DNA of 64,000 bases. It comes from an uncultured Candidatus Saccharibacteria bacterium. GTDB lineage: Bacteria > Patescibacteriota > Minisyncoccia > Phycocordibacterales > UBA2100. Below are positions 10,067 to 62,570 of the stretch, in pieces. Position 1 is the first letter of the stretch, and the number at the start of each line of letters is the position of its first letter. The stretch is taken from positions 28,603-92,602 of the forward strand of contig CAZELA010000002.1 of the NCBI GenBank assembly GCA_964512835.1, given 5' to 3'. The notes beneath the pieces were generated by a model. That model searched no databases, was not told where the DNA came from, and saw nothing but the letters and a program-made list of their open reading frames with translations. A program made the translations under genes and the position numbers.

Positions 10067-11353
10067 GTGGCAGACGGAAAGACCGATATTTTGATACTGG
10101 GGAGCGGGGCGCGAGAGCACGCGCTCGCATGGAAGCTCGCACAGTCTCCCCGCGTGGGGACTATCTACGCTGCACCCGGCAATGCCGGCACAGGTTCATT
10201 TTGTAAGAATGTCGACATTCCGGCGACGGACATCCCGCGCCTTGCGGATTTTGCACATCAGCATTCTATCGGTCTGACCGTCGTCGGGCCGGATGAACCG
10301 CTTGCCCTCGGCATAGTCGATCAGTTCAAACGCACCGGATTGCGTATCTTCGGTCCGACGAAAGCGGCCGCGCAGATCGAAAGCTCAAAGGCGTTCGCGA
10401 AGAAGCTGATGCATGAGGCGAAGATACCGACCGCGGCGTACAGCGTATTCACCGATGCGGTACAGGCACAAGGGTACGTGCAGGCCGGGCCGCTCCCGGT
10501 CGTAATCAAGGCAAGCGGTCTTGCGGCCGGCAAAGGCGTTGTCATTGCGCAGACGCATGAAGAGGCGCGTGCGGCGATTGACGACATCATGGTCAAACGC
10601 ATCTTCGGCGATGCCGGCACGTCGGTCGTCGTCGAGGAATTTCTGGAGGGAAATGAGATATCCGTCCATGTCATGACAGACGGCGTTAATTACGCGATAT
10701 TCCCGAGCTCTCAGGACCACAAGCGCATCGGCGAAGGGGACACCGGCAAGAATACCGGCGGCATGGGGGTCATTGCACCCGTGCCCTGGGTGAATTCAGA
10801 TATGATGCTTGCGATCGAGAAGACAATCATCCAACCGCTCATACGGGCCCTCGGTGATCGAGGCATACCGTACCAGGGGGTGCTGTTCCCCGGCATCATG
10901 ATGACGCCCGCAGGTCCGAAGGTTATAGAACTCAATGCGAGGTTCGGTGACCCGGAGTGCCAGACGTACATGCGTATGCTTAACAGCGACCTTATGGATC
11001 TGATCGACGAATGTGTCGACGGCGGCATCGGGACGCATATACCGCGCTGGGATACTGCGGGAACGGTCGGCGTCGTTCTTGCATCGCAGGGCTATCCGGA
11101 TGATTTCCAGACGGGGTTCAAGATAAGCGGCCTCAAGGAGGCGGGTATGAGCGAGAACGTCGTCGTATTCCATGCCGGAACCGTCGCAAACGACGGATTC
11201 TATACCGCCGGCGGTCGGGTACTCACCGTGACCGCGACGGGGTCACCGATCGCAAAAGCACAGGAGCTCGCCTATCGGGCCGTTGAAAAGATAACGTTCG
11301 AGAATAAGTACTACCGTCGCGATATCGGCCAGAAGTCGATTACCGCATCCTAG
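10067..11353 (+). CDS. purD: Phosphoribosylamine--glycine ligase
   Basis: ILILGSGAREHALAWKL N-terminus and an ATP-grasp core. 428 aa. Confidence 0.9.
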   Translation: MADGKTDILILGSGAREHALAWKLAQSPRVGTIYAAPGNAGTGSFCKNVDIPATDIPRLADFAHQHSIGLTVVGPDEPLALGIVDQFKRTGLRIFGPTKAAAQIESSKAFAKKLMHEAKIPTAAYSVFTDAVQAQGYVQAGPLPVVIKASGLAAGKGVVIAQTHEEARAAIDDIMVKRIFGDAGTSVVVEEFLEGNEISVHVMTDGVNYAIFPSSQDHKRIGEGDTGKNTGGMGVIAPVPWVNSDMMLAIEKTIIQPLIRALGDRGIPYQGVLFPGIMMTPAGPKVIELNARFGDPECQTYMRMLNSDLMDLIDECVDGGIGTHIPRWDTAGTVGVVLASQGYPDDFQTGFKISGLKEAGMSENVVVFHAGTVANDGFYTAGGRVLTVTATGSPIAKAQELAYRAVEKITFENKYYRRDIGQKSITAS

Positions 11354-11433: not shown

Positions 11434-14241
11434 ATGGAACCGCGGATTCTCAGCGAGCGTATTACGCCGCGCAACAACACCGAGAAATTCAAATCTGCCG
11501 AAGAAGAGCTTGCATACCTGCGCGAGCAGGTGGCACAAAAAGAACGCGAGCTTTCTGTCCAGCCGGGATCGTTCGAAAAGGACCGTATTGCGAAGCGTGA
11601 GATCGCACAGTACGCCGATATTCCGTCTGCGAAGATCCTGCACGAGACCGTCGTCATGCCCGAGCACGAGACCATGCGACAGATCCTGAAGCTCGAGCCC
11701 GAGGCGCATGACAAGCAGCTCGACGGGCTTATTTCTATCGTAGAGACGCAGGGCGTAAAGAACGCGCTCTCGGTCGCCTCGAGGCTCAAGAATCCGCATC
11801 TGGAAGACGATTTTCATCGCCTCCTGGTGCGGTATGTCGCCGAAGGGTTGCCGGATAGCGGCACGGCAGTCGCAGAAAAAGTGAAGCGTGCACTCCACAT
11901 GGTGCTCTTCGAGGTTCGACCTCAGGCTCATGGCGAGAGCGGGGCAAAGGAATCAGGGCAGCAAAGGCTCGAGCACTTGCTCGCGCCGTCGGAGCAACTC
12001 TACGCAGGACTCCTCACGTTTATAGACGGTACGGAGGGATTTTCGCTCGAGATCGCCGTTCCGCAGGGATCCGAGAGCGCAACGCTCTACCTTGCGGTGC
12101 CGCGCGAAAAACGTACGCTCGCAGAACGGCTCATCACGTCGGTCTTTCCGAACGCGACAATTTCAGAGAGTCGCGGCGACTACAACATATTTGATTACGA
12201 GGGATCGCATGCCGCCTCGTATGCCGTGCTCGCGAAGCACCACGCGTTTCCCGTTAAGACTCCGGATATGTTTGAGCACGATCCCATGAACCTCGTGCTG
12301 GCGGCATTTGCCAAGATTGCGAAGCACGGGGAAGGTGCCGCCATCCAGTTGATCGTGGGATCCGAAGGGGATCGTTACAATCACTACTACAAGAAGGTTG
12401 TCCGCGAGCTCGAGAACGGCAAAGAGATCAACGAAGCGCTCAAGGTGCCGGAGACGGAGATTGGTGAGGCGCTGCGCGATGTGGCAAAACACATCTTCTC
12501 GTCATCGCACGAGACACATCAGTCTGCTCATGCGGTTGATAAGGTGGCAATGGACGAAATATCGCGAAAAATGCAGACCCGTGTTGCGCCTGTCGTGGTG
12601 CGTATCGTCGCATCAGCAAAAGTCCCCGCACGCGCGGATGAAATGCTCGCGAATCTCGAATCGGCGCTGAGCCAATTTGATAATCCGAAGGGAAACCATT
12701 TTGAGTTTGAGCGCGTCTCAAGCTGGGGGTTGAATTCGTTTTTGCATGACTACACTTTCCGCTCGTTCAATGCATCGATCGCGCAGCCGCTCTCGCTCGC
12801 CGAACTCAGTGCCATGTTCCATTTCACCGCTGAACGTGTGACGACGTCGCGCGAGCTGAAAAAGTCGCACGGTAAGCAGGCGCCGGCACCAGTCGATATG
12901 GGTACAGAAGGTATTGTGCTCGGAAAGAACCGCTATGGCGCGGATGAGAGCGAGATTCACTTTGCACCCGCAGATCGCCTGCGTCACTGCTACATAATCG
13001 GTCAGACCGGTACCGGTAAGACAGGCTTCATTACGAACATGATCCTGCAGGATATCCGGAACGGGGAAGGGGTCGCGTTCATTGACCCGCACGGGAGTGA
13101 TATTGAGAACATTCTGTCCGCCATACCGGAGGAACGAAAAAAGGACGTCATTTACTTTGACCCGGCGTATTCTGCGATGCCCATGGGGCTCAATATGCTT
13201 GAGTACGACACTTCGAAGCCCGAGATGAAGTCGTTTGTGATCGACGAGGTGTATGGCGTATTTCGCCAGCTTTACTCCGATGTGCCGGAGGCGTTCGGGC
13301 CGATGTTCGAACAGTACTACCGAAACGCGGTACAGCTCGTCGTCGAGGACCCGGCGACCGGCAGCACATTCGTAGAGATTCCCCGTGTATTCGCCGACAA
13401 AGCGTTCCGGGACCTCAAGATCTCCCGCTGCAACAATCCGATCGTCGTGCAATTTTGGCGGAAGATCGCAGAGGCGGCCGAGGGGGATGCGGGGCTCGAG
13501 AGTATTGCGCCATACATCACGAGTAAATTCGACGCCTTTCTTTCCCACGACATCATGCGACCGATCGTTGCGCAGGAGAAGTCCGCGTTTAACTTCCGCG
13601 AGATCATGGATGGAAAAAAGATATTCCTCGCAAACCTGTCGAAGGGGCGTCTTGGTGATAAGAATGCGGCCCTCCTGGGGCTCGTAATCGTGTCGAAGTT
13701 TTTGCAGGCCGCGTTCTCGCGTGCGGACACCCGCGAGGTGCTTCCGCCGCACTACCTGTACATCGATGAGTTCCAGAATTTCGTCACGCCGTCGATTTCG
13801 ACCATTCTCTCTGAGGCCCGAAAATACAAACTTTCACTTACGGTAGCGCACCAGTTCATGGCGCAGCTCGAAGACGAGATCCGTGATGCGGTCATCGGTA
13901 ACGTCGGTACAAAGATCGCGATGCGTGTCGGAACGACCGATGCGGAATTCCTCGAAAAGCAGTTTTTGCCCGAGTTCACCGCCAAAGATCTCGAGCAGCT
14001 CCCGAACCGTACCGGTGTTGCCGCGATGCTTGTGAACGGGGTGCCGGCAAAGCCATTTACGGTGGAGACCCTGCAATTGCCCGAATTCGATCACTCACAT
14101 CTCGAGGAGATTAAACAACAGTCATACGAGCGGTACGGTGTGCCGCGCGAAGCGGTCGAGGCCGAAATACGTCGCAAGTTCGGGTTCGGCACTCAGTCTG
14201 ACGCCCCGGTGCGGAGCCCTATTTCATCCCTCATGAATTAG
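11434..14241 (+). CDS. P-loop ATPase of the TraG/TraD/VirD4 (type IV coupling protein, FtsK-HerA superfamily) type with a roughly 500-aa uncharacterised N-terminal region
   Basis: Walker A YIIGQTGTGKTGF, Walker B LYIDEFQNF and a downstream AHQ motif lie in the C-terminal half. The N-terminal half has no recognisable motif. Start trimmed to Met28 (MEPRIL), which is preceded by a TATACT -10-like box. Confidence 0.55.
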   Translation: MEPRILSERITPRNNTEKFKSAEEELAYLREQVAQKERELSVQPGSFEKDRIAKREIAQYADIPSAKILHETVVMPEHETMRQILKLEPEAHDKQLDGLISIVETQGVKNALSVASRLKNPHLEDDFHRLLVRYVAEGLPDSGTAVAEKVKRALHMVLFEVRPQAHGESGAKESGQQRLEHLLAPSEQLYAGLLTFIDGTEGFSLEIAVPQGSESATLYLAVPREKRTLAERLITSVFPNATISESRGDYNIFDYEGSHAASYAVLAKHHAFPVKTPDMFEHDPMNLVLAAFAKIAKHGEGAAIQLIVGSEGDRYNHYYKKVVRELENGKEINEALKVPETEIGEALRDVAKHIFSSSHETHQSAHAVDKVAMDEISRKMQTRVAPVVVRIVASAKVPARADEMLANLESALSQFDNPKGNHFEFERVSSWGLNSFLHDYTFRSFNASIAQPLSLAELSAMFHFTAERVTTSRELKKSHGKQAPAPVDMGTEGIVLGKNRYGADESEIHFAPADRLRHCYIIGQTGTGKTGFITNMILQDIRNGEGVAFIDPHGSDIENILSAIPEERKKDVIYFDPAYSAMPMGLNMLEYDTSKPEMKSFVIDEVYGVFRQLYSDVPEAFGPMFEQYYRNAVQLVVEDPATGSTFVEIPRVFADKAFRDLKISRCNNPIVVQFWRKIAEAAEGDAGLESIAPYITSKFDAFLSHDIMRPIVAQEKSAFNFREIMDGKKIFLANLSKGRLGDKNAALLGLVIVSKFLQAAFSRADTREVLPPHYLYIDEFQNFVTPSISTILSEARKYKLSLTVAHQFMAQLEDEIRDAVIGNVGTKIAMRVGTTDAEFLEKQFLPEFTAKDLEQLPNRTGVAAMLVNGVPAKPFTVETLQLPEFDHSHLEEIKQQSYERYGVPREAVEAEIRRKFGFGTQSDAPVRSPISSLMN

Positions 14242-19664: not shown

Positions 19665-21134
19665 TTAGCGGAGTGCTTTTGTTGTTGTCGCGGTAGAGGT
19701 TGCCGTCTGAACGGTCGCCTTTGATCCGCCGAAAACTCGAATACTGAGCTTTTGCACGAGGGTGAGCAATGTATCGCGCAGCTTTGTCATCAATGTAATA
19801 AGCGTCTTCTGCATCGTTGCGAGGACGGACGATGATGTCGATGACGAGACGGTTGCTTTAGCCTGGTTCTGCTCTCCGAACGTCGCGGTCACATGGATGG
19901 GATCTATCTCGACCGACGTCGATGCGATGGGGCGCTCCTCGTCGTAGATGGTCTCTTTTACGTTCGATCCTTTTGTCGGGTCGTCCGGTGTTTCCGGTTC
20001 GGTGGATTGCGTTTGAGTCGGCGTCGAGGTCGATGTTTGGGTCGATGTTGTGTACCACTCAAATTCTTTTGTCATTAACTGGATCTGTTGCAGGTCAGAA
20101 ATTTGTTTCGTCGCCGTTGCGCTCGTGCTCGACGGTAGGTTGTACGTGTACGGTGCGGGGACTTCAAACGTCGTCGTCGCGGTCGGCCATGTGTAGACGG
20201 GGATATCCGGATAGGTTGGAGTCGTGGGATACGTAGGAGTCGTCGGGGTATTCGATTGGTTGAGCAGCGCAGCAGCCAAGGGAGAGAATTGGGCCGCTGT
20301 CGACATCATCGATGGATTCCACGTGCTCGGAGCAAACGCGCCGGTATTTGAATACGGGATACTCGACTGGTCGCCGGTCCATCCGGTTTGCGGCAAGGGC
20401 TGTTGTTTACCGTTTACCGCGCCTGCCGGTTCGATATGCCACGGCTCGTACTCCATCGGATAGCGTAGGTTGAACTGCGCAAAATTTGTATGGGCCCAGT
20501 TACATGCCGGGATAGTGGACATGCATGACGCTGTGTTCGTCGGGCCGCGCTGCCCGCTAAAGCTCAGGTCGACTGCAAGACCGAAATTATGCTTAGAGCT
20601 GCCCGGTGGTGCGACCGGCGCGCCGCACTTACCGCACGCGATGTATTTATCGTACAGCTGTTTTTGTAGCTCAACGGAACGATAGCCGGAGGCGATCGTG
20701 ATATTTTGTCCGGCCGCATCTGCTGCCTTCAAAAATTTAGAGAGACGGCATGCAAAGTCAGAATTCAATCCGCTGACGGTATCGGGCCTTCCGGTCTTAT
20801 CTTTCGTCTGCAGATACGGGTAGGGATTCGTTTCGCAGCCGCCGTACAGCAGTGCCTTGTCCTTGTCGCAAAACATACCGCTCGACGGAATCAGAGCGCC
20901 CATAGCGAGAAGTCCGGTACGCTCCTCGGGGGTGATCTCGTGGCATCCGGCGAAGATCGCGCTCGCAGTCGGTTCGGCGCTCGCGACTCCGTGAATGCAC
21001 AGGATTCCTACGGCAAACATCGCGATGAGGAGTTTCGCACCTTTGTGCACATGCATGCGGGAAGTATACCGAGTGATTTGCATTCGCGCTTCGCCCGGTG
21101 GGGAGATTAGCGGTCGCTGTGACAGGCTCCCCAC
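19665..21134 (-). CDS. Secreted peptidase M15 (VanY / D-Ala-D-Ala carboxypeptidase-like) with a Thr/Pro-rich low-complexity linker
   Basis: Signal peptide, zinc-binding SSKHNFGLAVDL and EPWHIEP motifs. Low-complexity TPTTPTYPTTPTYP and STQTSTSTPTQTQST stretches. Confidence 0.65.
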   Translation of the reverse strand: MGSLSQRPLISPPGEARMQITRYTSRMHVHKGAKLLIAMFAVGILCIHGVASAEPTASAIFAGCHEITPEERTGLLAMGALIPSSGMFCDKDKALLYGGCETNPYPYLQTKDKTGRPDTVSGLNSDFACRLSKFLKAADAAGQNITIASGYRSVELQKQLYDKYIACGKCGAPVAPPGSSKHNFGLAVDLSFSGQRGPTNTASCMSTIPACNWAHTNFAQFNLRYPMEYEPWHIEPAGAVNGKQQPLPQTGWTGDQSSIPYSNTGAFAPSTWNPSMMSTAAQFSPLAAALLNQSNTPTTPTYPTTPTYPDIPVYTWPTATTTFEVPAPYTYNLPSSTSATATKQISDLQQIQLMTKEFEWYTTSTQTSTSTPTQTQSTEPETPDDPTKGSNVKETIYDEERPIASTSVEIDPIHVTATFGEQNQAKATVSSSTSSSVLATMQKTLITLMTKLRDTLLTLVQKLSIRVFGGSKATVQTATSTATTTKALR

Positions 21135-21676
21135 ATGCCGCGTCCGTTCTGTCGGGCGTCTGCTTCGGATGCCTTAAATTCACCCGCATGGATGTACGGA
21201 TCTTTGTACGTATATTCGCGCGCAAATCCTTCCTGTACCAAATATTGATTGGCGAGCACTCCGCCCGGTGAGGCGTCGGTCGGTACGTATACATATGCGA
21301 GCAGTCGGTCGTACACGTCGTACATGTTTTGCGAGGGGTCAGTCTGAAGCCTGACCATCTTGCCGTCGAGTAATCGGTGTGCGGCAGCGGATGCTTCGGA
21401 GCCGTAACATTCCGCGTGGGTGTAGCGGGTCTCGACCTCGGGGGAGTCGATCCCGATCAGGCGTACCGATACTCGTTTGCCGTTGAGCAGTACGACAATG
21501 GTATCGCCGTCATGTACCTGCATGACTTTATAGAAGCCGTCGAGTTCCGGGATTTGCGGCCGATCGGGAATTCGTACTTCGGCGAGATACGCGGCGATCA
21601 CAACCAGGATAAGCGCAAGGAGCAGTCGCAATCGCGTATGCATGGCTTCAGTATGCCCCGAAACGGGGATGTCCAC
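21107..21676 (-). CDS. Membrane-anchored thermonuclease (SNase-like, micrococcal nuclease family)
   Basis: N-terminal transmembrane helix. SNase region IRLIGIDSPEVETRY...YDRLLAYVYV. Overlaps the downstream M15 peptidase gene by 28 bp. Confidence 0.7.
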   Translation of the reverse strand: MDIPVSGHTEAMHTRLRLLLALILVVIAAYLAEVRIPDRPQIPELDGFYKVMQVHDGDTIVVLLNGKRVSVRLIGIDSPEVETRYTHAECYGSEASAAAHRLLDGKMVRLQTDPSQNMYDVYDRLLAYVYVPTDASPGGVLANQYLVQEGFAREYTYKDPYIHAGEFKASEADARQNGRGMWGACHSDR

Positions 21677-21693
21677 ACCTTCATGGTTGCATC

Positions 21694-21707
21694 AGAACGT
21701 TCGTTCT
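21694..21707. promoter_or_regulatory. Cheo-type LexA box (GAAC-N4-GTTC) in the divergent lexA / nuclease-peptidase intergenic region
   Basis: The sequence aGAACgttcGTTCt lies 15 bp upstream of the lexA start and is followed by a TAATAT -10-like element. Confidence 0.6.
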
Positions 21708-21721
21708 AATATACTTCTGTT

Positions 21722-22300
21722 ATGGAAGACTTCTCACAGTACCGGGATGAAATGGCAAAGTTCTACCGTGCCAACAAGCGGATGCCGTCATTCTCTGAAC
21801 TGATGAAGCTCTGGGACTACAAGACCAAGAGCGCGGTCAACTACAAGCTCGAACAGATGATCGATGCGGGGCTCGTGCGCAAGGACAAGAGCGGCCGCCT
21901 CATTCCGCACAAAATGGAAGACGATGCAGGACTTCCGCTCCTTGGCCTCGTCGAAGCGGGATTTCCGTCGCCGGCCGAAGAAGAGCTGCTCGATGTGCTT
22001 TCGTTCGACGAATATCTCACACCGAACAAAGAATCGAGCTACATCCTGAAGGTAAAAGGGGATTCCATGATTGATGCCGGTATCCGCGAAGGCGACATGG
22101 TCATTGTGGAGCGTCGCTCGTCGTACAAGGTGGGGCAGATTGTCATCGCATCGGTCGACGGCGAGTACACCATGAAGTATCTGCGCAAGAGCGGCGACAA
22201 ACATTATCTGGAGCCGGCGAACGAACGATACAAACCCATCTATCCGAAAGAATCCTTTCGGATCGAGGCGGTCGTTACAGCAGTCGTGCGGAAATATTAA
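21722..22300 (+). CDS. lexA: LexA repressor (S24 peptidase)
   Basis: N-terminal winged-helix region. C-terminal GDSM...KYLRK Ser/Lys dyad context. Confidence 0.85.
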   Translation: MEDFSQYRDEMAKFYRANKRMPSFSELMKLWDYKTKSAVNYKLEQMIDAGLVRKDKSGRLIPHKMEDDAGLPLLGLVEAGFPSPAEEELLDVLSFDEYLTPNKESSYILKVKGDSMIDAGIREGDMVIVERRSSYKVGQIVIASVDGEYTMKYLRKSGDKHYLEPANERYKPIYPKESFRIEAVVTAVVRKY

Positions 22301-22607
22301 TTCACTTCAAACCACAGCACCGTATGAAAAAAATAGATAACTGGCTCTCCATTCAGCGATACGTCGCGCAGGCCTCGCAGATCGTATCCGTTCCCACCAT
22401 GACCAACGTCGAGGTGTGGGGCAAAGTCCGCTCGAAACACGAAACCAGAAAGAACAGACGCTTCCTCGTTCCTCGCATTACAACCATTTAAAAGTTACCA
22501 CCATAAAAACATCCTATGAGAATCTCAATCACACTTACTCCGAAGTTCGCAACGTTTATCCGTCGCCTCTTCCGCGCACATCTCTACGTTCCGACGCGCT
22601 ACGAGGT

Positions 22608-23237
22608 ATGGAACGTGTAGCGAGCCTGAGCAGTAGGGCATTCGCTATCGTCGATGTTGAAACTACGGGTACCGGCCTCAATGATCGCGTCATCGAGATC
22701 GGAATCCTTCGCATCGAGAACGGTGTCTGTGTCGAAACGTTCAAAACTTTTTTAGATCCCGAACAGCCGATTTCTTCGTGGATCACCCGCCTCACCGGCA
22801 TTACAGACTCCGATGTGGAGAGTGCGCCGAGTTTTCTCGATGTGGCAGACCGTGTGGCGCGTTTGCTGCGGGGCGCGATCTTTGTGGCACACAACGCGGC
22901 ATTCGATTACGCGTTCATTAGACAGGAGTTTGCGCGCATCGACCGATTTTTCGAGGCGCGGTGTCTGTGCACCGTGAAGCTCTCGCGCTTGCTCTCTCCG
23001 CGGGCAAAGCGCCACAACCTGTCTGCAGTGATACGTCGACACAAGCTTTCGTGCGAATCGCGTCATCGAGCGTTTGATGATGCGCACGCACTCTGGCAGT
23101 TCATACAGTGGGGTGAGCGGCGGAAGGCGAGAACGCTCGCACATGCTATTGAACGACTTTTACACACCGACCGTACGCAGGAGCGCGTGCACGCACGCCG
23201 ACCTGAGTACTCCGAAGGCGAACAGGTTATTCGATAA
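22608..23237 (+). CDS. DEDDh 3'-5' exonuclease (DnaQ/epsilon-like)
   Basis: Exo I FAIVDVETTG, Exo II AHNAAFDYAF, Exo III H..D. Start trimmed to the Met of MERVASL. Confidence 0.75.
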   Translation: MERVASLSSRAFAIVDVETTGTGLNDRVIEIGILRIENGVCVETFKTFLDPEQPISSWITRLTGITDSDVESAPSFLDVADRVARLLRGAIFVAHNAAFDYAFIRQEFARIDRFFEARCLCTVKLSRLLSPRAKRHNLSAVIRRHKLSCESRHRAFDDAHALWQFIQWGERRKARTLAHAIERLLHTDRTQERVHARRPEYSEGEQVIR

Positions 23238-23249
23238 CACTATGAATCT

Positions 23250-24575
23250 ATGGCATGGGGATCATCCGGTTCGTTTCCGCGCGCAATACTCCACATCGAC
23301 GGGGATTCATTTTTTGCGGCATGCGAAGTGGCGAAGAACCCCAGCCTCCGCGGTAAGCCGGTCATAACAGGCAAAGAGCGAGGCATCGTATCCGCCGCGA
23401 CCTACGAAGCCAAGGCGCGCGGCGTAAAGCGCGGTGTACCGCTGCACGAAGCACTCAAGGCATGCCCCGATGCGATCATCCTGCCGTCGGATTACGAGAC
23501 GTACAGCCTGTTCTCGAATCGCATGTACGAGATCGTGCGCAGGTACACACCAGCAGTCGAGGAATATTCGATCGACGAATGTTTTGCCGATCTGACCGGA
23601 CTGCGCCGTACACTCCGTATGCCGTATCCGAAGATCGCCTTGAAGCTGCAGGAAGAACTTGAGAGTGAGCTCGGGCTCTCGTTCTCGATCGGGGTTGCAC
23701 CCACGAAGGTGCTCGCCAAGGTGGGTTCCAAGTGGAAGAAGCCGCACGGACTCACCATGATTCCGCTCTACGATGTGCATACATTCCTCGCGAAGACGCC
23801 GACTATCGGTGTGTGGGGCATCGGTCCGAACACCGCTGCGTACCTGCAGAAGTTCGGTATCCGCACTGCACTGGATTTTGTGAACCGTGACGAAGCAGAA
23901 GTTCGCGACATGGTTACAAAACCCATCTACGAGATCTGGAGAGAGCTCAAGGGTGAAGTGGTATACGAACTCGACACCGAAGGCCGCGGGTCGTACCAGT
24001 CGATCAGCAAGACCAAAACATTCACGCCACCCTCGAGCGATCCGCGATTCGTTGCGGCGCAACTCTCAAAGAATGTCGAGAATGCGTGCATCAAGGCGCG
24101 CCGCTGGGGTCTCGCCACACCGGAGATATTCTTTTTCCTCAAAACACAGGAATTCAAATACCACGGATGCGAGATCAAGCTCTCGCATCCGACCTGTATC
24201 CCGAACGACATTCTTTCGGCGGTCCGCACCCAATTTCTTCGGGTGTTCAAGAGAGGGACGCAGTACCGCGCTACAGGGATCGTGCTTATGAAATTGCAGG
24301 ACGCGAACAAGACGCAACTCGACCTGTTCGGCTCCGTGCTCAAGACCGAGGCCGCAAAATCGGTATACGAAAGTCTGGATGAGATTGCTGCCAAGTACGG
24401 CAAGCACGCGATATTCCTCGGATCGAGCTTCCATGCAATGAAGCCGCAGATGAGCAAGGTAGCGAACCATTCGCCGATAGCCCGCGAAGAAAAGCCTGCG
24501 CGTCACCGCGAACTGTTCAAGGGAGAAACCGCACGCAGACGACTGGGCGTCGCGTCGCTCGGCGAGGTGAACTAA
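23250..24575 (+). CDS. dinB: DNA polymerase IV (Y-family translesion polymerase)
   Basis: ILHIDGDSFFAACE, SIDECFADLT and a little-finger domain. 441 aa. Confidence 0.9.
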   Translation: MAWGSSGSFPRAILHIDGDSFFAACEVAKNPSLRGKPVITGKERGIVSAATYEAKARGVKRGVPLHEALKACPDAIILPSDYETYSLFSNRMYEIVRRYTPAVEEYSIDECFADLTGLRRTLRMPYPKIALKLQEELESELGLSFSIGVAPTKVLAKVGSKWKKPHGLTMIPLYDVHTFLAKTPTIGVWGIGPNTAAYLQKFGIRTALDFVNRDEAEVRDMVTKPIYEIWRELKGEVVYELDTEGRGSYQSISKTKTFTPPSSDPRFVAAQLSKNVENACIKARRWGLATPEIFFFLKTQEFKYHGCEIKLSHPTCIPNDILSAVRTQFLRVFKRGTQYRATGIVLMKLQDANKTQLDLFGSVLKTEAAKSVYESLDEIAAKYGKHAIFLGSSFHAMKPQMSKVANHSPIAREEKPARHRELFKGETARRRLGVASLGEVN

Positions 24576-27414: not shown

Positions 27415-28635
27415 ATGATCCTTCTCTCGCTTATTTCCTACGTCCTCGTACAGACGCTGGGGTTATTCATCGCATTCGCGGCAGCTGCGGTGCTTTTGTA
27501 TATGATTCTGCGGCGGTTTCATTCTCGAGCTATCACACTTACGTTGTGTGCGGTGTTCATCGGTATATCAATATTCTTTTACGTACCGAACGGTTTACCC
27601 AGCGGCTTTGAGTACGCCGCGTATCGCGCTACGTACGGACCCGCCGGAAAACCGTCCCTCCCATTCTGGAATGTCATCGCTTTCTTCCGGCACTTCAATG
27701 CATTTGAGCGTGTAGCTGATATCGCACACGACCCGAATCAGGTCGGAGAGCCGATCGCGCGGACCGCGACCAGCACCGTGCATGTCGACATTGTGGCAAA
27801 AGAAGTCATCTCTGAACTCGCGCCGGGTGTGTATCAGAATTTTTGGACCTACAACGGCACGGTGCCCGGCCCGATGGTGCGTGTGCGCGTAGGTGACACC
27901 GTCGTTGTAACGCTGAAGAACGATGAGTCGAGCCTCCACCCGCACACCATAGATTTCCACGCGGTCATCGGACCCGGAGGGGGAGCGGCGGTGCTGCTTG
28001 CGAATCCGGGCGAGACGAAAACGCTCACGTTCACCGCACTGCATCCGGGGCTGTTCGTATACCACTGCGCAGCGCAGAATCCTGCGGTGCACATGGCGCA
28101 TGGCCAGTACGGATTGATCCTTGTCGAACCGGAGACACCGTTGCCGCCGGTCGATCACGAGTACTACGTGATGCAGGGTGAGTTCTACACCACCGGAACG
28201 CTCGGCCAAAAAGGACTGCAAATATTCGATTCAAAAGCGATGCTCGACGGTATTCCGAATTACGTTGTGTTCAACGGCAGAACCGGCGCACTCGCCAAGA
28301 GTCTCAATGCGAAGTCAGGCGAAACCGTGCGCTTCTACGTGGGTAACGGCGGAGTAAATCTGATCTCGTCGTTCCACATCATCGGGACCGTGTTCGATCG
28401 CGTGTGGCAGGAAGGCTCGATCACAAGTCCGCCCGTCACCAACGTGCAAACAACACTCGTTCCGGCAGGTGGTTCAACAGTGGTTGACCTGACGCTGCGG
28501 GTACCGGGGAATTTTGTCCTCGTTGATCACGCGCTCGCGCGCGTAGACAAAGGTGCGTGGGGCGTGCTGCACGTCACCGGCGATCCTGAGCCCGGAGTAT
28601 TCCAGGGCCAAGCGCAGGAGATGAAAGGACACTAG
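27415..28635 (+). CDS. nirK: Copper-containing nitrite reductase (NirK, two-domain multicopper oxidase) with an N-terminal membrane anchor
   Basis: Two N-terminal transmembrane helices. Type 1 and type 2 copper-ligand motifs HTIDFHAV...GGG, LHPGLFVYHCA, HMAHGQYGLILVEP. Confidence 0.8.
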   Translation: MILLSLISYVLVQTLGLFIAFAAAAVLLYMILRRFHSRAITLTLCAVFIGISIFFYVPNGLPSGFEYAAYRATYGPAGKPSLPFWNVIAFFRHFNAFERVADIAHDPNQVGEPIARTATSTVHVDIVAKEVISELAPGVYQNFWTYNGTVPGPMVRVRVGDTVVVTLKNDESSLHPHTIDFHAVIGPGGGAAVLLANPGETKTLTFTALHPGLFVYHCAAQNPAVHMAHGQYGLILVEPETPLPPVDHEYYVMQGEFYTTGTLGQKGLQIFDSKAMLDGIPNYVVFNGRTGALAKSLNAKSGETVRFYVGNGGVNLISSFHIIGTVFDRVWQEGSITSPPVTNVQTTLVPAGGSTVVDLTLRVPGNFVLVDHALARVDKGAWGVLHVTGDPEPGVFQGQAQEMKGH

Positions 28636-29157: not shown

Positions 29158-29197
29158 AGCCCCGAAGCGATAGCTTCGGGGCTGACTATTTTTTGTG
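29158..29197. terminator. Bidirectional terminator shared by the small membrane gene and ssrA
   Basis: gccccgaagcgatagcttcggggc followed by tgactatttttt. Confidence 0.6.
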
Positions 29198-29585
29198 GAG
29201 GTGCGGGGAATTGAACCCCGGTCCAGAAAATGATTCACAGTCGTATCTACACGGCGTAGGGCATTCGATGTGTTTGAGTGCCGCGCGTTAAGAATGCACA
29301 AGATCGCGCAACACCGGACTCTCTTTCTTTAGGTCTGTGGTCGGAGTGAACCAAAGACCGGATCTGATGTTTATGACGTTCGGTAGCGCGCTATCAGATA
29401 CGCAACGCGCGAACGGTCGCCTGGCTTACGCGAGGACGAAGCCGAGATCCTTCATCTGAATCGGTGAAAGAGTCCCCCCTGCAGTTTTGTTTGCAGTTAG
29501 AATTTGGAACTTTTTAGGAAGTGTCCCACTTCCGCCATGCACAAAAGTAAACTGAATTTCCTGTCGAAGCCGATCACCCCCCACC
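29194..29585 (-). ncRNA. ssrA: tmRNA (SsrA)
   Basis: The reverse complement begins GGGGGGTGATCGGCTTCGACAGG and ends GGACCGGGGTTCAATTCCCCGCACCTCCACA, a tRNA-like 3' end with no encoded CCA. The internal tag reading frame ends ...QMKDLGFVLA-TAA. Adjacent to smpB. Confidence 0.8.
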
Positions 29586-38994: not shown

Positions 38995-39068
38995 CCGCCC
39001 TTAGCTCAGTTGGTTAGAGCATCGAGCTTATACCTCGAGGGTCCTTGGTTCGAGTCCAAGAGGGCGGA
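38995..39068 (+). tRNA. tRNA-Ile with anticodon UAU, no encoded CCA
   Basis: Cloverleaf by eye. Acceptor CCGCCCT/AGGGCGG, D-arm GCTCAGTTGGTTAGAGC, anticodon loop CTTATAC, T-arm CTTGGTTCGAGTCCAAG. Confidence 0.65.
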
Positions 39069-49648: not shown

Positions 49649-49735
49649 GGAGAGGTGCCAGAGCGGTCGAATGGAGCACACTGCTAATGTGTTGAGCGGG
49701 AAACCGTTCCGAGGGTTCGAATCCCTCCCTCTCCG
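49649..49735 (+). tRNA. tRNA-Ser (anticodon GCU), long variable arm, no encoded CCA
   Basis: GGAGAGG acceptor, 3-bp D-stem, anticodon loop CTGCTAA, variable arm TGAGCGGGAAACCGTTCC, T-arm GAGGGTTCGAATCCCTC. Confidence 0.8.
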
Positions 49736-50486: not shown

Positions 50487-51407
50487 ATGTGGCAATTGCG
50501 AGTGATAAACTTGAACAAAATGAAACCGGCCCCATTCGTTGCTTCAGTAGTGCTCCTCGTTGCCGGGGTCGTCATGTACCTACTCACGCGCGGCGCCGAT
50601 ATCCCTGTCTTACATCCGTCGGGTCCGATAGCCCTCGCGGAGTATCGCGTGATCCTTGTTACATTCCTCCTTTCCGCGCTCATCATCGTGCCCGTTTTCT
50701 TTTTGCTGTTCTTTTTTTCGTGGCGATATCGGGCCCAAGGTCCGGATACACAGAAACATCATCATCCGACCTGGGATCATGAGAACGCAGCCGTCGAATT
50801 TCTCTGGTGGCTTATACCGGCAGGGATCATCGGCGTCCTGTCGGTCGTCGCATGGCAGAGTTCGCATGCGCTTGATCCATATGTGCGTATACCGGGGGAA
50901 CGCACAGTCGAGGTGCAGGTCGTGGCTCTGCAGTGGAAGTGGTTGTTCATATATCCCGAACTCGGTCTCGCATCGGTCAATGAGCTTGTTATTCCGGTAG
51001 GAACGCCGGTTCATTTTTCGCTCACCGGGGATGCGCCGATCAATTCTTTTTGGATACCCAGTCTCGGCGGACAGATCATGGTCATGCAGGGTATGCAGAC
51101 GCAGCTGAACCTGCTTGCTTCAGAGGCGGGCACGTTCGAGGGGTGGTCGGGTAATCTCTCCGGCAGGGGATTTTCAAAGATGATGTTCAAGGTGCGAGCG
51201 CTTCCGACGGATCAATACGAATCCTGGGTTGAGCGGGCGCAGCACGACACGACCACTCCGCTGAACGCGGAAAACTACGTGTCGCTTTCCGCGCCGACTG
51301 AGGGACATTCCGTTACGTATTATTATCCGGTGGATCCTGACTTGTATACTTCGATCCATACCAAATACATGAGCGCGCCGGTCGCTGAGCATAGTCATTC
51401 GATATGA
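50487..51407 (+). CDS. cyoA: Quinol oxidase subunit II (CyoA-like; the CuA ligand Cys residues are absent)
   Basis: Signal or transmembrane N-terminus. The region ELVIPVGTPVHFSLTGDAPINSFWIPSLGGQIMVMQGMQTQLNL resembles the E. coli CyoA core. No CxExC CuA motif. Start may be the Met at 50520. Confidence 0.75.
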   Translation: MWQLRVINLNKMKPAPFVASVVLLVAGVVMYLLTRGADIPVLHPSGPIALAEYRVILVTFLLSALIIVPVFFLLFFFSWRYRAQGPDTQKHHHPTWDHENAAVEFLWWLIPAGIIGVLSVVAWQSSHALDPYVRIPGERTVEVQVVALQWKWLFIYPELGLASVNELVIPVGTPVHFSLTGDAPINSFWIPSLGGQIMVMQGMQTQLNLLASEAGTFEGWSGNLSGRGFSKMMFKVRALPTDQYESWVERAQHDTTTPLNAENYVSLSAPTEGHSVTYYYPVDPDLYTSIHTKYMSAPVAEHSHSI

Positions 51408-53371
51408 GCCTGCAGTCCATTCTCTTCGGAAAGCTTTCTCTCGACGTGTTCCCGCACGATATTGTCGCGATCGGCGGGGTCGTATTCATGCTCACGTGTT
51501 CGCTCATCGTTCTCGCGCTGATATCCCGTGGTCACCTGTGGGCATATCTCTGGAAGGAATGGCTCACATCGCTCGATGCAAAGAAGATCGGCATGATGTA
51601 CATCGCAGTGTCCCTTGTCATGTTGGTGCGAGGGCTTGCCGACGTACTGCTTATGCGTACGCAGCAGGCGCTCTCCGTCGGCGCGTCCAACGGCATACTC
51701 GACCCGTCGCATTTCCAGCAGGTATTCACGGCGCACGGCACGATCATGATCTTCTTCGTGGCGATGGGTGTGATGTTCGGTCTCATAAACCTCATCGTGC
51801 CGCTCCAGATCGGCGCCCGTGACGTCGCGTTTCCGTTCCTGAACTCCGTCAGCTTCTGGCTATTCGCGTTCGGGGCACTCCTGGTGAATGTGTCGCTTGT
51901 CCTCGGCGATTTTTCCACCGCGGGCTGGCTTGCATATCCGCCGCTGTCCGGGATTGAGTTTAGTCCGAACTCCGGCGTCGACTACTGGATATGGAGCCTT
52001 CAGATAAGCGGATTGGGTAGTCTGCTCTCAGGTGTCAATTTCATCACAACAATCGTCACAAAGCGCGCGACCGGTATGACGTACATGCGGCTGCCTATGT
52101 TTGTATGGACGGTCTTGGGCTCAATGGTTCTTGTTGTGGTCGTGTTTCCGATTCTCACGGTCACGCTTTCGCTCCTGAGTCTCGATCGCACACTGGGAAT
52201 GCACTTTTTCACTGCGGAGCTTGGCGGCAACATGATGATGTATGTGAATCTGATATGGGCGTGGGGACATCCCGAGGTGTACATTTTGATCCTGCCTGCG
52301 TTCGGAATCTTCTCGGAAATCGTGCCGGTGTTCTCCGGCAAAAAACTCGCCGGATACCGTTCGATGGTGTTTTCTGTGATCGCGATCGGATTTTTGTCGT
52401 TCCTCGTCTGGCTACATCACTTTTTCACCATGGGTGCGGGTGCGAACGTTAATGCATTCTTCGGGATCATGACTGCGGTTATTGCAGTGCCGACCGGGGT
52501 AAAAATATTCAACTGGATCTTCACGATGTATCGCGGCCGCATTCGGCTTGTGAATGCGATGCAATGGTTCATGGGATTCACGGTGCTTTTCACGATCGGG
52601 GGAGTGACGGGTGTTGTGCTGTCACAGCCGCCTGCTGATTTTCAGTTGCACAACACGCTGTTCCTCGTCGCACACTTTCACAACATGATCGTCAGTGGTG
52701 TGTTGTTCGGATACTTTGCGGGGATCACGTTCTGGTTCCCGAAATTCTTCGGTTTCAGACTCAACGAGCGTATCGGCTCGTGGGCCATCTGGTCGTGGAT
52801 CGTTGGGTTCGTGCTTGCGTTCATGCCGCTCTACATTCTCGGGTTCATGGGCGCGACACGTCGCCTCGACCATTACGATGCCTCGCTCGGTTGGCAGGGA
52901 TTGTTCATTGTGGCGGGTGTGGGTGCGCTCATTATTGCGCTCGGATTCGTATTGCAGCTCGTGCAGCTGTGGGTGAGCGTGCGTGACCGCCGCACGACGC
53001 GTGATACAACAGGTGATCCGTGGGATGGCCGGTCGCTCGAGTGGAGCACTGTCTCTCCGCCGCCCGTGTACAACTTTGCGGTGCTGCCGGTTGTTCATGC
53101 GCGTGATCAGTTTTGGGTAACCAAAGAAGGGGGTGTGCGGCAGGAGCAGCACTACACCGATATCATCATGCCCAAGAACTCCGCACTCGGTATCGGGATC
53201 GCTGCCTGTGCGTTCCTGTTCGGTTTCGGCGTGGTCTGGCACATCGTGTGGATGATCTCGCTCGGCGTCCTCGCCGGTATCGCACTGTTTACGCATCGCA
53301 TGTACCTCGAAGAGAGCGATACGGAATATGTCATCCCCGCAGAAACAGTGCGTCGCATGGAAACACTATGA
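51404..53371 (+). CDS. cyoB: Heme-copper quinol oxidase subunit I
   Basis: WAWGHPEVYILILPAFGIFSEIV and conserved His ligands. 655 aa, overlaps cyoA by 4 bp. Confidence 0.9.
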   Translation: MSLQSILFGKLSLDVFPHDIVAIGGVVFMLTCSLIVLALISRGHLWAYLWKEWLTSLDAKKIGMMYIAVSLVMLVRGLADVLLMRTQQALSVGASNGILDPSHFQQVFTAHGTIMIFFVAMGVMFGLINLIVPLQIGARDVAFPFLNSVSFWLFAFGALLVNVSLVLGDFSTAGWLAYPPLSGIEFSPNSGVDYWIWSLQISGLGSLLSGVNFITTIVTKRATGMTYMRLPMFVWTVLGSMVLVVVVFPILTVTLSLLSLDRTLGMHFFTAELGGNMMMYVNLIWAWGHPEVYILILPAFGIFSEIVPVFSGKKLAGYRSMVFSVIAIGFLSFLVWLHHFFTMGAGANVNAFFGIMTAVIAVPTGVKIFNWIFTMYRGRIRLVNAMQWFMGFTVLFTIGGVTGVVLSQPPADFQLHNTLFLVAHFHNMIVSGVLFGYFAGITFWFPKFFGFRLNERIGSWAIWSWIVGFVLAFMPLYILGFMGATRRLDHYDASLGWQGLFIVAGVGALIIALGFVLQLVQLWVSVRDRRTTRDTTGDPWDGRSLEWSTVSPPPVYNFAVLPVVHARDQFWVTKEGGVRQEQHYTDIIMPKNSALGIGIAACAFLFGFGVVWHIVWMISLGVLAGIALFTHRMYLEESDTEYVIPAETVRRMETL

Positions 53372-59911: not shown

Positions 59912-60481
59912 ATGGCTAAAACGATCATTTCATTCGTAGGAATCATTGCCGCCTTCGGTATATTCTTCTTTTATACAAAGCCGACCTATGATTCCGCGCA
60001 GGGGGAGCGTGCAAAGATCGCCGAGTACGACGCCGCACTCGTGAAGGCAAACGAGCTCCAGGAACGCAAACAAGCACTCCTGAAAAAGTACAACGACTTC
60101 TCTCCGGAAGATAAAGACCGACTTCAGAAGTTGCTTCCGGATCACGTAGACAACGTGCGCCTCATTCTGGATCTCGACAATATCGCTTCGCGTCGCGGCA
60201 TGGCCATGCAGAACGTCGTCGTTTCGACGCCGGGCGCAGGTCAGACGGCGCAGACTGCGGTCGGTACCATCAGCTCTTCAAAGCAGAAGTACGACGTGCT
60301 TACGACGAAGTTCTCCACCACGGGCACCTATACACAGTTCCAGCAGCTGATAACCGATCTGGAAACCTCGCTTCGTATCGTCGATATTTCAACGCTCAAG
60401 GTCTCGAAGAACGATCTGTACTCGAACGGTGAACCGCTGTTCTCCTACGAGGTGAGCTTACGCACGTACTGGCTGAAATAA
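59912..60481 (+). CDS. pilO: Type IV pilus assembly protein PilO-like
   Basis: Single N-terminal transmembrane segment followed by a coiled-coil. Operon position. Confidence 0.55.
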   Translation: MAKTIISFVGIIAAFGIFFFYTKPTYDSAQGERAKIAEYDAALVKANELQERKQALLKKYNDFSPEDKDRLQKLLPDHVDNVRLILDLDNIASRRGMAMQNVVVSTPGAGQTAQTAVGTISSSKQKYDVLTTKFSTTGTYTQFQQLITDLETSLRIVDISTLKVSKNDLYSNGEPLFSYEVSLRTYWLK

Positions 60482-60483
60482 TT

Positions 60484-60867
60484 ATGCAGTGGATCAAAAA
60501 GAACATGCTATTGATAGGGATACTCGTCATCGTCATCGTCGGCGGTGTGTGGTACGGCATGTCGGGCGGTGGGGTACAGGAGGGGCCGTTGCTCACCACA
60601 GACGTTGTGAATGACAGCGGTTCACCGACTGAAGACACTGTCGATCGCGACCTGGTGGAAACGCTACTCACGCTCCGCGCAATCACGCTCTCGGGGACGA
60701 TATTCAACGACCCGGCATTCAAGGCACTGCAGGATTTTGGTACCACCATCGTCCCGGAGCCCGTCGGTCGCTCAAATCCGTTCGCTCCGGTCGGTAACGC
60801 TCAACAGGGAAGAGATAGCAACATCCAACAAACCCAACCTCAGACACAGGGCGGCCCCCGACGCTAA
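60484..60867 (+). CDS. Pilus-assembly-associated membrane protein (PilP-like?)
   Basis: N-terminal transmembrane helix, 127 aa. Position between pilO and pilB. Confidence 0.35.
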   Translation: MQWIKKNMLLIGILVIVIVGGVWYGMSGGGVQEGPLLTTDVVNDSGSPTEDTVDRDLVETLLTLRAITLSGTIFNDPAFKALQDFGTTIVPEPVGRSNPFAPVGNAQQGRDSNIQQTQPQTQGGPRR

Positions 60868-60872
60868 CGCGT

Positions 60873-62570
60873 ATGGCAAATCCTGCATTGACGGCGTCCG
60901 GTATCGAAGGGCGCACGCTCGGAGACGCGAAGGTCCCGTACGAAGTGTTGCGCGCAATCCCACAGGAGAGCGCCGAGCACTATCAAATCGCGCCGCTTTC
61001 GATTGTCGACGATGTGCTCGAGGTCGGTATGGTGAATCCCGACTCAATCGAAGCGATCGACGCGCTGAACTTTATTTCCCGAACGAGCGGACTGCCGTTC
61101 AAGGTGTTCAGCATTTCCCGCGAGGATTTCGACAAAGTGCTCACGATGTACCGCGGTCTCCGCGGGGAAGTTGAACAGGCGATAACAGACCTTGCGACGG
61201 AAGGGCCGACTCCGACCGAGGTCGCGTCGACGAAGACCAACGACGACGGTCTCGCCCCGCTCGATCTCGAAGATCCGAATCTTTCAAAGTCGCTCCTCAA
61301 TAAAGACCGGAACATTCAGGAAGATGCGCCTGCTATCAAGATCGTTTCGACGCTCCTGCGCTACGCAATCGACGGCAAGGCGTCCGACGTCCATATTGAA
61401 CCGTTGCCGAGCGGTGTTCGTGTCCGGTACCGAGTAGACGGCGAACTGCATACGAGCGTGGTGCTTCCGATTGCGACACACCGAGCGATTGTCGCACGCA
61501 TCAAAGTGCTTTCATCCATTCGACTCGACGAGCGACGTAAGCCGCAGGACGGACGATTTTCTGCGACGATCGACGGGCGTCAGATCGACTTTCGTGTCTC
61601 AACATTCCCGTCGTACAACGGCGAAAAGATCGTGATGCGTATTCTTGACCGCGAACAGGGCTTCATTCCGCTCGATCAGATCGGTCTGACACCCCGCAAT
61701 CTCGAGATCATGCGACGCGCGATAGCCCGACCGCATGGTCTGATCCTGATCTCAGGTCCGACCGGTTCCGGTAAGTCGACGACATTGTATTCAATGCTCT
61801 CGGAGCTGGATCGTGAACACAAAAATATTCTCTCGCTCGAAGATCCGATCGAGTACTTCGTCGAGGGCATCATTCAGTCCCAGGTGCACCCGGAAATCGG
61901 GTACACGTTTGCCTCCGGTCTCAGAACGACACTGCGTCAGGACCCCGACGTGATCATGGTGGGAGAAATCCGAGACGGCGAAACCGCGAAGCTTGCGATT
62001 CAGGCGGCGCTCACGGGTCACTTGGTACTCTCGACGATTCACACCAACGATGCAGTCGGTACCATTCCGCGTCTGATCGACATGGGTGTGGAGCCGTACC
62101 TGATCTCTCCGGTACTTGTCGCGTCGATCGCGCAGCGACTCGTGCGGCGTTTCTGCGACGGTGCGGCGCAGGAAACTCCGATAACCGAGAGTGCGAAATC
62201 ATTGATCCAGAGCGAAATGTCCTCGTTGCCCGAAAAATACCGATTCCCGGTAAAAGATACCGTGTACGAAGCGGTGCGAACGCCGACATGTCCGACCGGT
62301 ATGCACGGACGACTCGCCGTATTCGAAGTGCTTGAAATGTCGCCGAAGCTCGAGAACGTGGTCCTGAAGAACCCTGTCGAATCAAAACTGTGGGAGGTTG
62401 CGCGCGCAGAGGGTATGCTTACGATGCGCGAAGATGCGATCCAGAAGGTGTTCGAGAAAAAAGTCCCGTTCTCGGAGATCAACAACCTCTCATCTCTCAT
62501 GCTTGCGAACGACGCGGAGACCGAAAAGGAGCTTAAGACCGACGTCGGGGCGGAAGCCTCGGCAGCATAA
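60873..62570 (+). CDS. pilB: Type IV pilus assembly ATPase PilB (GspE family)
   Basis: Walker A ISGPTGSGKSTTLYS. Asp box, His box, and a tetracysteine-like region (CPTGMHG). Confidence 0.9.
   Translation: MANPALTASGIEGRTLGDAKVPYEVLRAIPQESAEHYQIAPLSIVDDVLEVGMVNPDSIEAIDALNFISRTSGLPFKVFSISREDFDKVLTMYRGLRGEVEQAITDLATEGPTPTEVASTKTNDDGLAPLDLEDPNLSKSLLNKDRNIQEDAPAIKIVSTLLRYAIDGKASDVHIEPLPSGVRVRYRVDGELHTSVVLPIATHRAIVARIKVLSSIRLDERRKPQDGRFSATIDGRQIDFRVSTFPSYNGEKIVMRILDREQGFIPLDQIGLTPRNLEIMRRAIARPHGLILISGPTGSGKSTTLYSMLSELDREHKNILSLEDPIEYFVEGIIQSQVHPEIGYTFASGLRTTLRQDPDVIMVGEIRDGETAKLAIQAALTGHLVLSTIHTNDAVGTIPRLIDMGVEPYLISPVLVASIAQRLVRRFCDGAAQETPITESAKSLIQSEMSSLPEKYRFPVKDTVYEAVRTPTCPTGMHGRLAVFEVLEMSPKLENVVLKNPVESKLWEVARAEGMLTMREDAIQKVFEKKVPFSEINNLSSLMLANDAETEKELKTDVGAEASAA

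Follow-up and report, generated by a model that had tools for sequence, protein, structure and literature searches.

The 64,000-nucleotide stretch analyzed here (hereafter, the window), part of contig CAZELA010000002.1 from an uncultured bacterium of the Patescibacteria, contains a lexA gene followed on the same strand by two small open reading frames (ORFs), orf55 and orf34, a DEDDh-type exonuclease gene and a gene for a Y-family DNA polymerase, polY (dinB). On the opposite strand, a gene for a membrane-anchored nuclease diverges from lexA, with a gene for an M15-type peptidase beyond it. The region between the divergent genes holds GAACGTTCGTTC (21695-21706), a perfect GAAC-N4-GTTC and thus the core of a Cheo box. 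An earlier note on this DNA, made from the sequence alone, had drawn attention to this motif, and its location between divergent genes is confirmed. Taken together, the evidence below quite probably describes a self-repressed SOS operon running from lexA to the polymerase gene, with the divergent neighbors as separate units.

The features are collected in Table 1. For comparison, we used the lexA loci of 80 species (L007-L086) whose LexA proteins are 60-100% identical to that of the window. These loci span 7 kb on either side of lexA in each genome and total 912 kb; scans for the extent of the regulon covered them and the 64-kb window.

Table 1. Features of the lexA region, in window coordinates (aa, amino acids; nt, nucleotides; PWM, position weight matrix)
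Feature	Position	Strand	Basis or remark
VanY/M15-type D-Ala-D-Ala carboxypeptidase gene, with signal peptide	19665-21056	-	Pfam VanY, E 1.5e-18
Predicted -10 of peptidase gene, TATACT	21063-21068	-	Pattern scan; 6 nt before ATG 21056
Membrane-anchored staphylococcal-nuclease-family gene, 178 aa	21107-21643	-	Pfam SNase, E 3.6e-19
Predicted -10 of nuclease gene, CATACT	21650-21655	-	6 nt before ATG 21643
DnaA-box-like element, ATGTCCACA	21669-21677	+	7/9 match to TTATCCACA; 9 nt upstream of the -35
Predicted -35 of lexA, TTGCAT	21687-21692	+	TTGAC(A) in the column profile of 69 promoters
Putative LexA operator, AGAACGTTCGTTCT (AGAAC-GTTC-GTTCT)	21694-21707	palindrome	In the 17-nt lexA promoter spacer; PWM 16.8 bits, top site of the window
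Predicted -10 of lexA, TATACT	21710-21715	+	Consensus at alignment columns 15-20; ATG 6 nt on
lexA, 192 aa	21722-22300	+	TIGR00498; Peptidase_S24; alignment with E. coli LexA structure
orf55, 55 aa	22324-22491	+	Conserved basic small protein; MKKIDxWLxIQRYV...RRFLVPRITTI
orf34, 34 aa	22516-22620	+	Conserved basic small protein; ends PTRYEVWNV
DEDDh (DnaQ/PolC-type) 3'-5' exonuclease gene, 209 aa	22608-23237	+	Pfam RNase_T PF00929, E 1.1e-32
polY, DinB-like Y-family polymerase gene, 441 aa	23250-24575	+	Pfam IMS, IMS_C, IMS_HHH

LexA and its putative operator

The product of lexA passes the TIGR00498 model (117.7 bits; curated cutoff 110.95) and contains a Peptidase_S24 domain (Pfam E 3e-28). 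Its Ala79-Gly80 cleavage site and Ser115/Lys152 dyad are invariant in 20 LexA homologs. While the Pfam model LexA_DNA_bind does not match the protein, which gives just weak winged helix-turn-helix (wHTH) matches (E 0.004-0.16), the LexA family profile aligns with solved structures of E. coli LexA over residues 16-188, winged helix included; on the E. coli side, the alignment covers residues 20-197, including the wHTH. An identical LexA is encoded on contig CAZWFX010000013.1 of a metagenome-assembled genome; where homologs are named, the labels read Paceibacteria, Kaiserbacteria or Parcubacteria.

Across the whole window, GAAC-N4-GTTC shows no enrichment: three perfect copies are present where 1.38 are expected, and 31 copies with one mismatch where 33.6 are expected. 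The copy upstream of lexA is the sole perfect one in an intergenic region, the remaining two being intragenic, and about 0.002 box matches are expected by chance in the 78-nt stretch that contains it. Comparison across species is more telling. In 69 of the 80 species, a perfect box is found in the 200 nt upstream of lexA, and six more have a one-mismatch copy there, so that the motif is kept at the orthologous locus in relatives. The 912 kb of loci contain 81 perfect boxes, compared with about 16 in Markov-1 simulations; 69 of them are at lexA, and the other 12 are no more than chance would supply, only one (L071) having promoter architecture. That 69 of 80 species keep the box at one position in the promoter rules out a chance match at lexA. 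The sequences flanking the core fall into two subtypes in this clade, tAGAAC...GTTCTa, to which the window belongs, and GGTGAAC...GTTCACC in sister lineages; the C and G flanks of the textbook Cheo box (CGAAC...GTTCG) are absent from the window's site, which reads AGAAC...GTTCT.

When the 69 promoters are aligned on the box, they share the layout TTGACa-N3-GAACN4GTTC-N3-TATACT-N6-ATG, with the ATG at columns 27-29 in about 60-70% of species. The window follows the same order, TTGCAT, CA, box, TAA, TATACT, TCTGTT and ATG (21722). The operator thus occupies the interval from -35 to -10, where repressors classically act, and the proposal that it is placed to repress lexA is upheld. Because the box keeps this one fixed promoter layout in 69 of 80 species, control of lexA by its own Cheo-type LexA box is strongly supported by the comparative data. 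The same layout also recurs outside the comparison set. A metagenome scan for the promoter-plus-operator pattern returned at least 120 loci (L087-L206), which include Firmicutes-type SOS promoters driving YneA-like proteins with a transmembrane segment and a LysM domain.

The lexA ATG sits where transcription should begin, and a leaderless lexA mRNA is therefore predicted. Such starts may not be peculiar to lexA. The signature TAnAnT-N6-ATG precedes genes of the window in 36 cases, compared with about 14 in shuffled sequence, an excess which suggests that leaderless mRNAs are widespread in this genome. Examples of starts with TAnAnT and a 6-nt interval are found at 10067, 11434, 14280, 21056, 21643, 21722, 27415 and 48835; a GG often stands just upstream, and a -35 is not clear. 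In one of these cases, a 962-aa ORF at 11353, the position of TAnAnT points to the later start, 11434.

Scoring with an 18-mer PWM built from 68 sites indicates how far the regulon extends. Real LexA sites score 10.9-27.3 bits, and at a threshold of 8 bits the window contains two sites, that of lexA at 16.8 bits and a second, GGTGAACCGCTGTTCTCC (60428-60445), at 15.1 bits. The latter falls inside the 3' end of a pilO-like gene, with a PilB-type ATPase gene downstream. It was treated as a chance match, as it has no -35 or -10 and the null maximum is 14.4 bits. The recG gene of the window has no LexA site, and among the 80 loci a second complete SOS promoter is present in L071 only, where it drives a 66-aa coiled-coil ORF. 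As far as scanned, within the window and the 912 kb of loci, the regulon seems to be the lexA operon only. L071 (8867-9151) and many of L090-L206 share a conserved 64-75-aa ORF with an SOS promoter, the pattern MSQxQYLKxxEREIxxxNxxIDxKI...EARxHKxLL and a hydrophobic tail. In distant Patescibacteria, in which LexA is 47-55% identical to that of the window, members of this family sit between the promoter and lexA. This family may encode an SOS effector, perhaps a division inhibitor.

Genes downstream of lexA

The interval between lexA and the exonuclease gene, described in the earlier note as a 300-nt gap, is not empty; its 307 nt hold orf55 and orf34. Indels in multiples of three and substitutions biased toward third codon positions (12/15/67 by codon position for orf55, 23/21/71 for orf34) identify this interval as coding. 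An RNA element was also considered and rejected, as the stretch is coding and has no Rfam match at gathering thresholds. In orf55, the N- and C-termini are conserved and the middle is variable. Gene callers predict orf55 in each of the six strain contigs and orf34 in a single one. By eye, members of the orf55 family were recognized directly after lexA in 16 species, and those of the orf34 family follow lexA in 13. The 3' end of orf34 overlaps the ATG of the exonuclease gene by 13 nt, an arrangement kept in seven of seven exonuclease-bearing species checked. In L013 and L019, where the exonuclease gene is absent, orf34 stands directly before the polymerase gene, and L059 and L060 lack the exonuclease gene as well. 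Neither ORF has a Pfam match, ImuB-C included, and none of the 11 close homologs of orf55 is named. The two proteins could be new accessory factors of the polymerase.

Several observations bear on whether these genes are transcribed together. From lexA through orf55, orf34 and the exonuclease gene to polY, successive junctions measure +23, +24, -13 (the overlap) and +12 nt. In 78 of the 80 species, polY comes after lexA, an order thus shared across the clade; among these 78, the two genes are at most 54 nt apart in 37 and 0-19 nt apart in 36. Where the gap reaches 100 nt or more, in 43 species, no LexA-like site separates the two genes (best score, -0.7 bits). A second operator before the exonuclease gene or polY was sought and not found, neither in the window, with up to one mismatch or with PWM scores from 8 bits upward, nor in those 43 other species. 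On the + strand, no terminator-like hairpin is present at 22300-22620 or 23237-23250, and in the pattern scan of the window, TAnAnT-N6-ATG precedes none of orf55, orf34, the exonuclease gene or polY. Given the tight junctions, the lack of an internal site, terminator or leaderless signature, and the lexA-polY synteny, we infer that one LexA-controlled transcript would cover all five genes.

The terminal gene of this run belongs to the Y family. The IMS and IMS_C matches are clear (E 2.5e-46 and 1.6e-13), and the catalytic motifs HIDGDSFF and SIDEC can be read from the translation. The protein also has a clamp-type motif, QLDLF, and a C-terminal extension with a weak match to DUF4113 (E 0.11). 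In all ten Pol IV equivalog models, it scores under the cutoff, the best result being 247.5 bits against a cutoff of 371 (NF002751). Within the Y family, the enzyme belongs to an uncurated subgroup and bears a C-terminal extension.

The exonuclease is likewise well defined as an enzyme. It exceeds the cutoff of TIGR00573 (94.6 versus 71.5 bits), its Exo motifs DVE, NAAFD and HRAFDDA can be read from the translation, and the DEDDh motifs are intact. Among solved structures, the nearest are the exonuclease domain of PolC, the DinG exonuclease and epsilon. A stand-alone DEDD exonuclease and a Y-family polymerase downstream of lexA are thus as the earlier note had described, except that 12 nt, not 13 bp, separate the two genes. 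That note had further treated the exonuclease and polymerase genes as a unit, an idea that the relatives do not support: lexA and polY are the shared pair, and the exonuclease gene lies between them in only about 10 of the 80 species.

The protein belongs to an exonuclease-Cho fusion family, of which it is the form with the exonuclease alone. Its best NCBIfam match is the exonuclease-GIY-YIG family PRK07883, and three orthologs of 482-515 aa (L008 2391-3839, L010 7792-9339 and L056 7828-9276) are fused to a GIY-YIG/excinuclease Cho module. In L008, this module is recognized by profile (GIY-YIG Pfam E 7.6e-07; excinuclease Cho E 1.8e-54), whereas in L010 and L056 it was assigned by sequence inspection. 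Domain searches find no such module C-terminal to the exonuclease domain in the 209-aa protein of the window. At the C-terminus, short and long forms nonetheless have the tail GExVI(R/Q) in common, which points to loss of the Cho module as the origin of the short one.

An alternative is that the exonuclease is a dedicated proofreading subunit of the polymerase encoded downstream, made in fixed proportion to it. The intact DEDDh motifs, the kinship to the proofreading domains of PolC and epsilon, and the mere 12 nt between the two genes all agree with such a role, and the conserved tail, which hints at a docking peptide, could provide the contact. The distribution of the gene argues otherwise. 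Most polY genes of the clade work without an exonuclease in the slot behind lexA, which is filled in this way in just the ten or so species noted above, and in L010 another gene separates exonuclease and polY. Moreover, the conserved translational overlap is with orf34 upstream rather than with polY, and the Cho fusions in L008, L010 and L056 place the enzyme in an excision-repair context. On this evidence a dedicated proofreader is unlikely. Given its presence in only about 10 of 80 species and its fusion to Cho in three, the exonuclease fits better as SOS repair nuclease cargo.

Other cargo is found in the same position. The lexA-polY slot of other species (L033-L039, L051, L066 and L080) contains GIY-YIG nucleases of 89 aa, toxins of the PemK/MazF type without an evident antitoxin, a MazG-like pyrophosphohydrolase and small 'SFERVLRR' ORFs.

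The divergent genes and a DnaA-box-like element

The earlier note had identified the divergent genes as encoding a membrane-anchored thermonuclease and an M15 peptidase, identities that the Pfam SNase and VanY matches bear out. It had also proposed that the two form an operon and that the single box serves as a shared operator, so that DNA degradation by the nuclease and peptidoglycan hydrolysis by the peptidase would be SOS-induced along with lexA. An arrangement of this kind is familiar from Bacillus subtilis, in which the divergent lexA/yneA pair shares boxes. In L007, L009, L010, L011, L013 and L022, the nuclease gene is divergent from lexA and no more than 220 nt away, and in the window a minus-strand promoter-like match, GTGAGA-18-TATATT (21737-21708), would place a start inside the box. 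Such matches, however, are no more frequent than chance predicts (5 versus 4.0 expected in the region). The -10 of this one is the complement of the AT-rich -10 of lexA itself, and its -35 lies inside lexA codons and is not conserved in L009 or L010.

Both divergent genes appear to have promoters of their own, with a conserved leaderless -10-N6-ATG at each. CATACT-gaagcc-ATG precedes the nuclease gene, and an equivalent -10-N6-ATG is found in a dozen species whether or not lexA is nearby. TATACT-tcccgc-ATG precedes the peptidase gene, which gene callers start at the 463-464-aa ATG; TATACT-N6-8-ATG is likewise present in L009, L011 and L029, again regardless of proximity to lexA. The nuclease itself probably starts at ATG 21643. 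The alternative GTG at 21676 lies in a conserved upstream element, and the 11 extra residues it would add are absent from relatives. The box is indeed in the divergent intergenic region, as first described, but the length of that region is more likely 78 nt than 45 bp.

With the start at 21643, the core promoter of the nuclease gene would not include the box, which spans -52 to -63, and in L022 more than 100 nt separate the box from the nuclease promoter. The nuclease gene adjoins lexA only in the closest relatives. In 15 of 21 species it is more than 220 bp from lexA, and no LexA-like site precedes it there, the best upstream score being 3.7 bits. As for the proposed operon, 50 nt separate the nuclease gene from the peptidase gene, and the latter has a -10-like element of its own, which leaves an operon of the two unestablished. 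The separate leaderless -10s, the position of the box at -52 to -63 and the lack of a site at distant orthologs leave SOS control of the nuclease and peptidase unsupported; both are probably expressed from their own promoters, and a shared operator is rather improbable. This removes the attractive idea of SOS-controlled extracellular DNA scavenging or attack on a host.

A second conserved element lies upstream of the operator. In many Patescibacteria lexA promoters, TTATCCACA, the DnaA-box consensus, is found 9-10 nt upstream of the -35, which in L007-L086 is about 26-29 nt upstream of the LexA box. A copy with at most one mismatch occupies this position in 35 of the 80 species, and 11 of the 18 perfect copies in the 912 kb of loci are at LexA-box promoters. 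The association extends to distant Patescibacteria. Among the metagenome matches listed, 27 of 30 promoters of the small-ORF-lexA type have a copy with at most one mismatch, usually with a 9-nt gap, whereas 74 of 89 other promoters show at least three mismatches to TTATCCACA.

Other roles for the element were considered. A general promoter element was rejected, as the excess is concentrated at LexA-box promoters and the other leaderless promoters of the window lack it. In the window, ATGTCCACA coincides with the -35 position of the divergent nuclease promoter; a role as a divergent -35 in general was rejected because the upstream gene varies by species while the element stays tied to lexA. Tentatively, Patescibacteria lexA promoters may be composite, joining the LexA operator to a candidate DnaA box; if DnaA binds it, they would receive two inputs, DNA damage through LexA and the status of the replication initiator. 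If DnaA binds ATGTCCACA, the nuclease gene could be coupled to the replication-initiator input as well. Related repeats in the opposite orientation occur upstream of lexA in four metagenome contigs with distant LexA proteins (25-29% identity to that of the window), as TGTGGATAA in L127, TGGGGATAA in L154 and TTGGGA(T/A)AA in L105 and L088, and hint that the feature is older than the Patescibacteria. A limited literature search found no paper linking DnaA boxes to lexA promoters.

The probable SOS operon and its known counterparts

The region would thus be an SOS operon of a Paceibacteria/Kaiserbacteria-type bacterium within the Patescibacteria. A sigma-70-type promoter would start transcription at or beside the lexA ATG, giving a leaderless mRNA, and a LexA dimer bound to the palindrome AGAACGTTCGTTCT would block RNA polymerase. 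Upon DNA damage, RecA-stimulated self-cleavage of LexA at Ala79-Gly80 would release the promoter, and transcription would then run through lexA, orf55, orf34, the DEDDh exonuclease gene and the Y-family polymerase gene under one operator. In evolutionary terms, lexA-polY would be the arrangement of the clade, with the small ORFs and the exonuclease gene carried as cargo in the intervening slot. The nuclease and peptidase genes on the other strand would be separate leaderless units that merely abut the lexA promoter.

Some points weigh against this account. The -35 of the window (TTGCAT) and the flanks of its box depart from the textbook consensus, and Shine-Dalgarno sequences before the downstream genes are not clear. 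Since no recA gene was found in the 64-kb window, the inducing half of the circuit is an assumption. A -10 may be all that promoters of this genome require, in which case a weak internal one before the exonuclease gene or polY could be present. Taken further, this last point would leave lexA as the only LexA-controlled gene, with orf55 to polY expressed from unrecognized internal promoters, independent of DNA damage; while many promoters here seem little more than a -10 and easily missed, and 23-24-nt gaps precede orf55 and orf34, this is rather improbable, as the 0-19-nt lexA-polY gap in 36 of 78 species leaves no space for a promoter, no downstream start has a terminator before it or a -10-N6-ATG signature, and the comparable lexA-polY operon of Geobacter sulfurreducens is one damage-induced transcript according to PMC6511836.

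The probable lexA-polymerase operon is, at its core, an ordinary finding: a lexA under its own control through an operator of the Gram-positive type, with an error-prone polymerase gene behind it. To our knowledge, almost no regulation in Patescibacteria has been studied experimentally, and the locus offers a clean, conserved promoter and operator layout with predicted leaderless transcription in an uncultured member of the group. The slot between lexA and the polymerase gene emerges as a collector of cargo, including small ORFs, the exonuclease in forms with Cho and without it, nucleases of the GIY-YIG family, MazG and toxins of the MazF type. Possibly new here are the small ORFs, the Cho-derived exonuclease and the DnaA-like element; of these, the two small ORFs and the conserved DnaA-box-like element could open new ground.

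Elsewhere in the window, a heme-copper oxidase subunit I (COX1, E 2.8e-142) is encoded at 51404-53371 and a multicopper oxidase-like protein at 27415-28635; Patescibacteria are usually described as lacking respiratory chains. Rfam identifies a tmRNA gene (29193-29581, - strand) and two tRNA genes (38995-39068 and 49649-49735), and smpB adjoins the tmRNA gene in strain contigs. A 935-aa protein (11434-14241) has a TraG/TraD C-terminal coupling-protein motif and, together with type IV pilus genes at 59912-62570, may represent DNA-uptake or conjugation-like machinery.

Among known systems, the closest in its operator is that of Gram-positive LexA (DinR), whose Cheo box, CGAAC-N4-GTTCG in B. subtilis and with Actinobacteria forms, has the same GAAC-N4-GTTC core inside the lexA promoter. 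The system described here differs in the A...T flanks of the box, or GGTGAAC...GTTCACC in sister lineages, in the predicted leaderless mRNA and in a regulon that, in the window and the 912 kb scanned, seems to comprise the lexA operon only. The SOS network of Patescibacteria reportedly combines a Gram-positive-like motif with a small regulon. A limited literature search returned nothing usable on LexA of the Candidate Phyla Radiation or on Cho-epsilon fusions. PMC8565304 cites a comparative-genomics study of the LexA regulon in the Patescibacteria (Sanchez-Osuna, Barbe and Erill 2017, Environ Microbiol 19:3465).

In gene order, the operon resembles lexA-imuB-C-polY of G. sulfurreducens (Jara et al. 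2003), which forms a single damage-induced transcript, as related by Timinskas and Venclovas 2019 (PMC6511836). There, a small accessory gene and the gene of an active Y-family polymerase come after lexA, as the small ORFs and the polymerase gene do in the window. The window differs in having an exonuclease gene in addition and in that orf55 and orf34 have no detectable similarity to ImuB-C. The operators differ as well, that of Geobacter being GGTT-N10-AACC (PMC8565304) and that of the window GAAC-N4-GTTC. The C-terminal extension of the window polymerase resembles those of extended Y-family groups that feature in PMC6511836.

The exonuclease has its counterpart in the excinuclease Cho and DEDD-exonuclease-GIY-YIG fusions (NF007833 and NF005906/PRK07883), of which PRK07883 gives the best score. 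At 209 aa rather than 482-515 aa, the window protein keeps the exonuclease domain and the last eight or so residues of these fusions. In E. coli, cho is LexA-regulated.

Finally, the operon shares with umuDC the succession of a gene for an S24-fold protein and a gene for a Y-family polymerase. The C-domain of the window LexA scores 107.9 bits on the UmuD model, just under the cutoff of 110, and the polymerase has a UmuC-style C-terminal extension with its weak DUF4113 match. Unlike UmuD, however, the S24 protein of the window has a probable DNA-binding domain and passes the LexA model, and the polymerase scores higher on Pol IV models than on UmuC.

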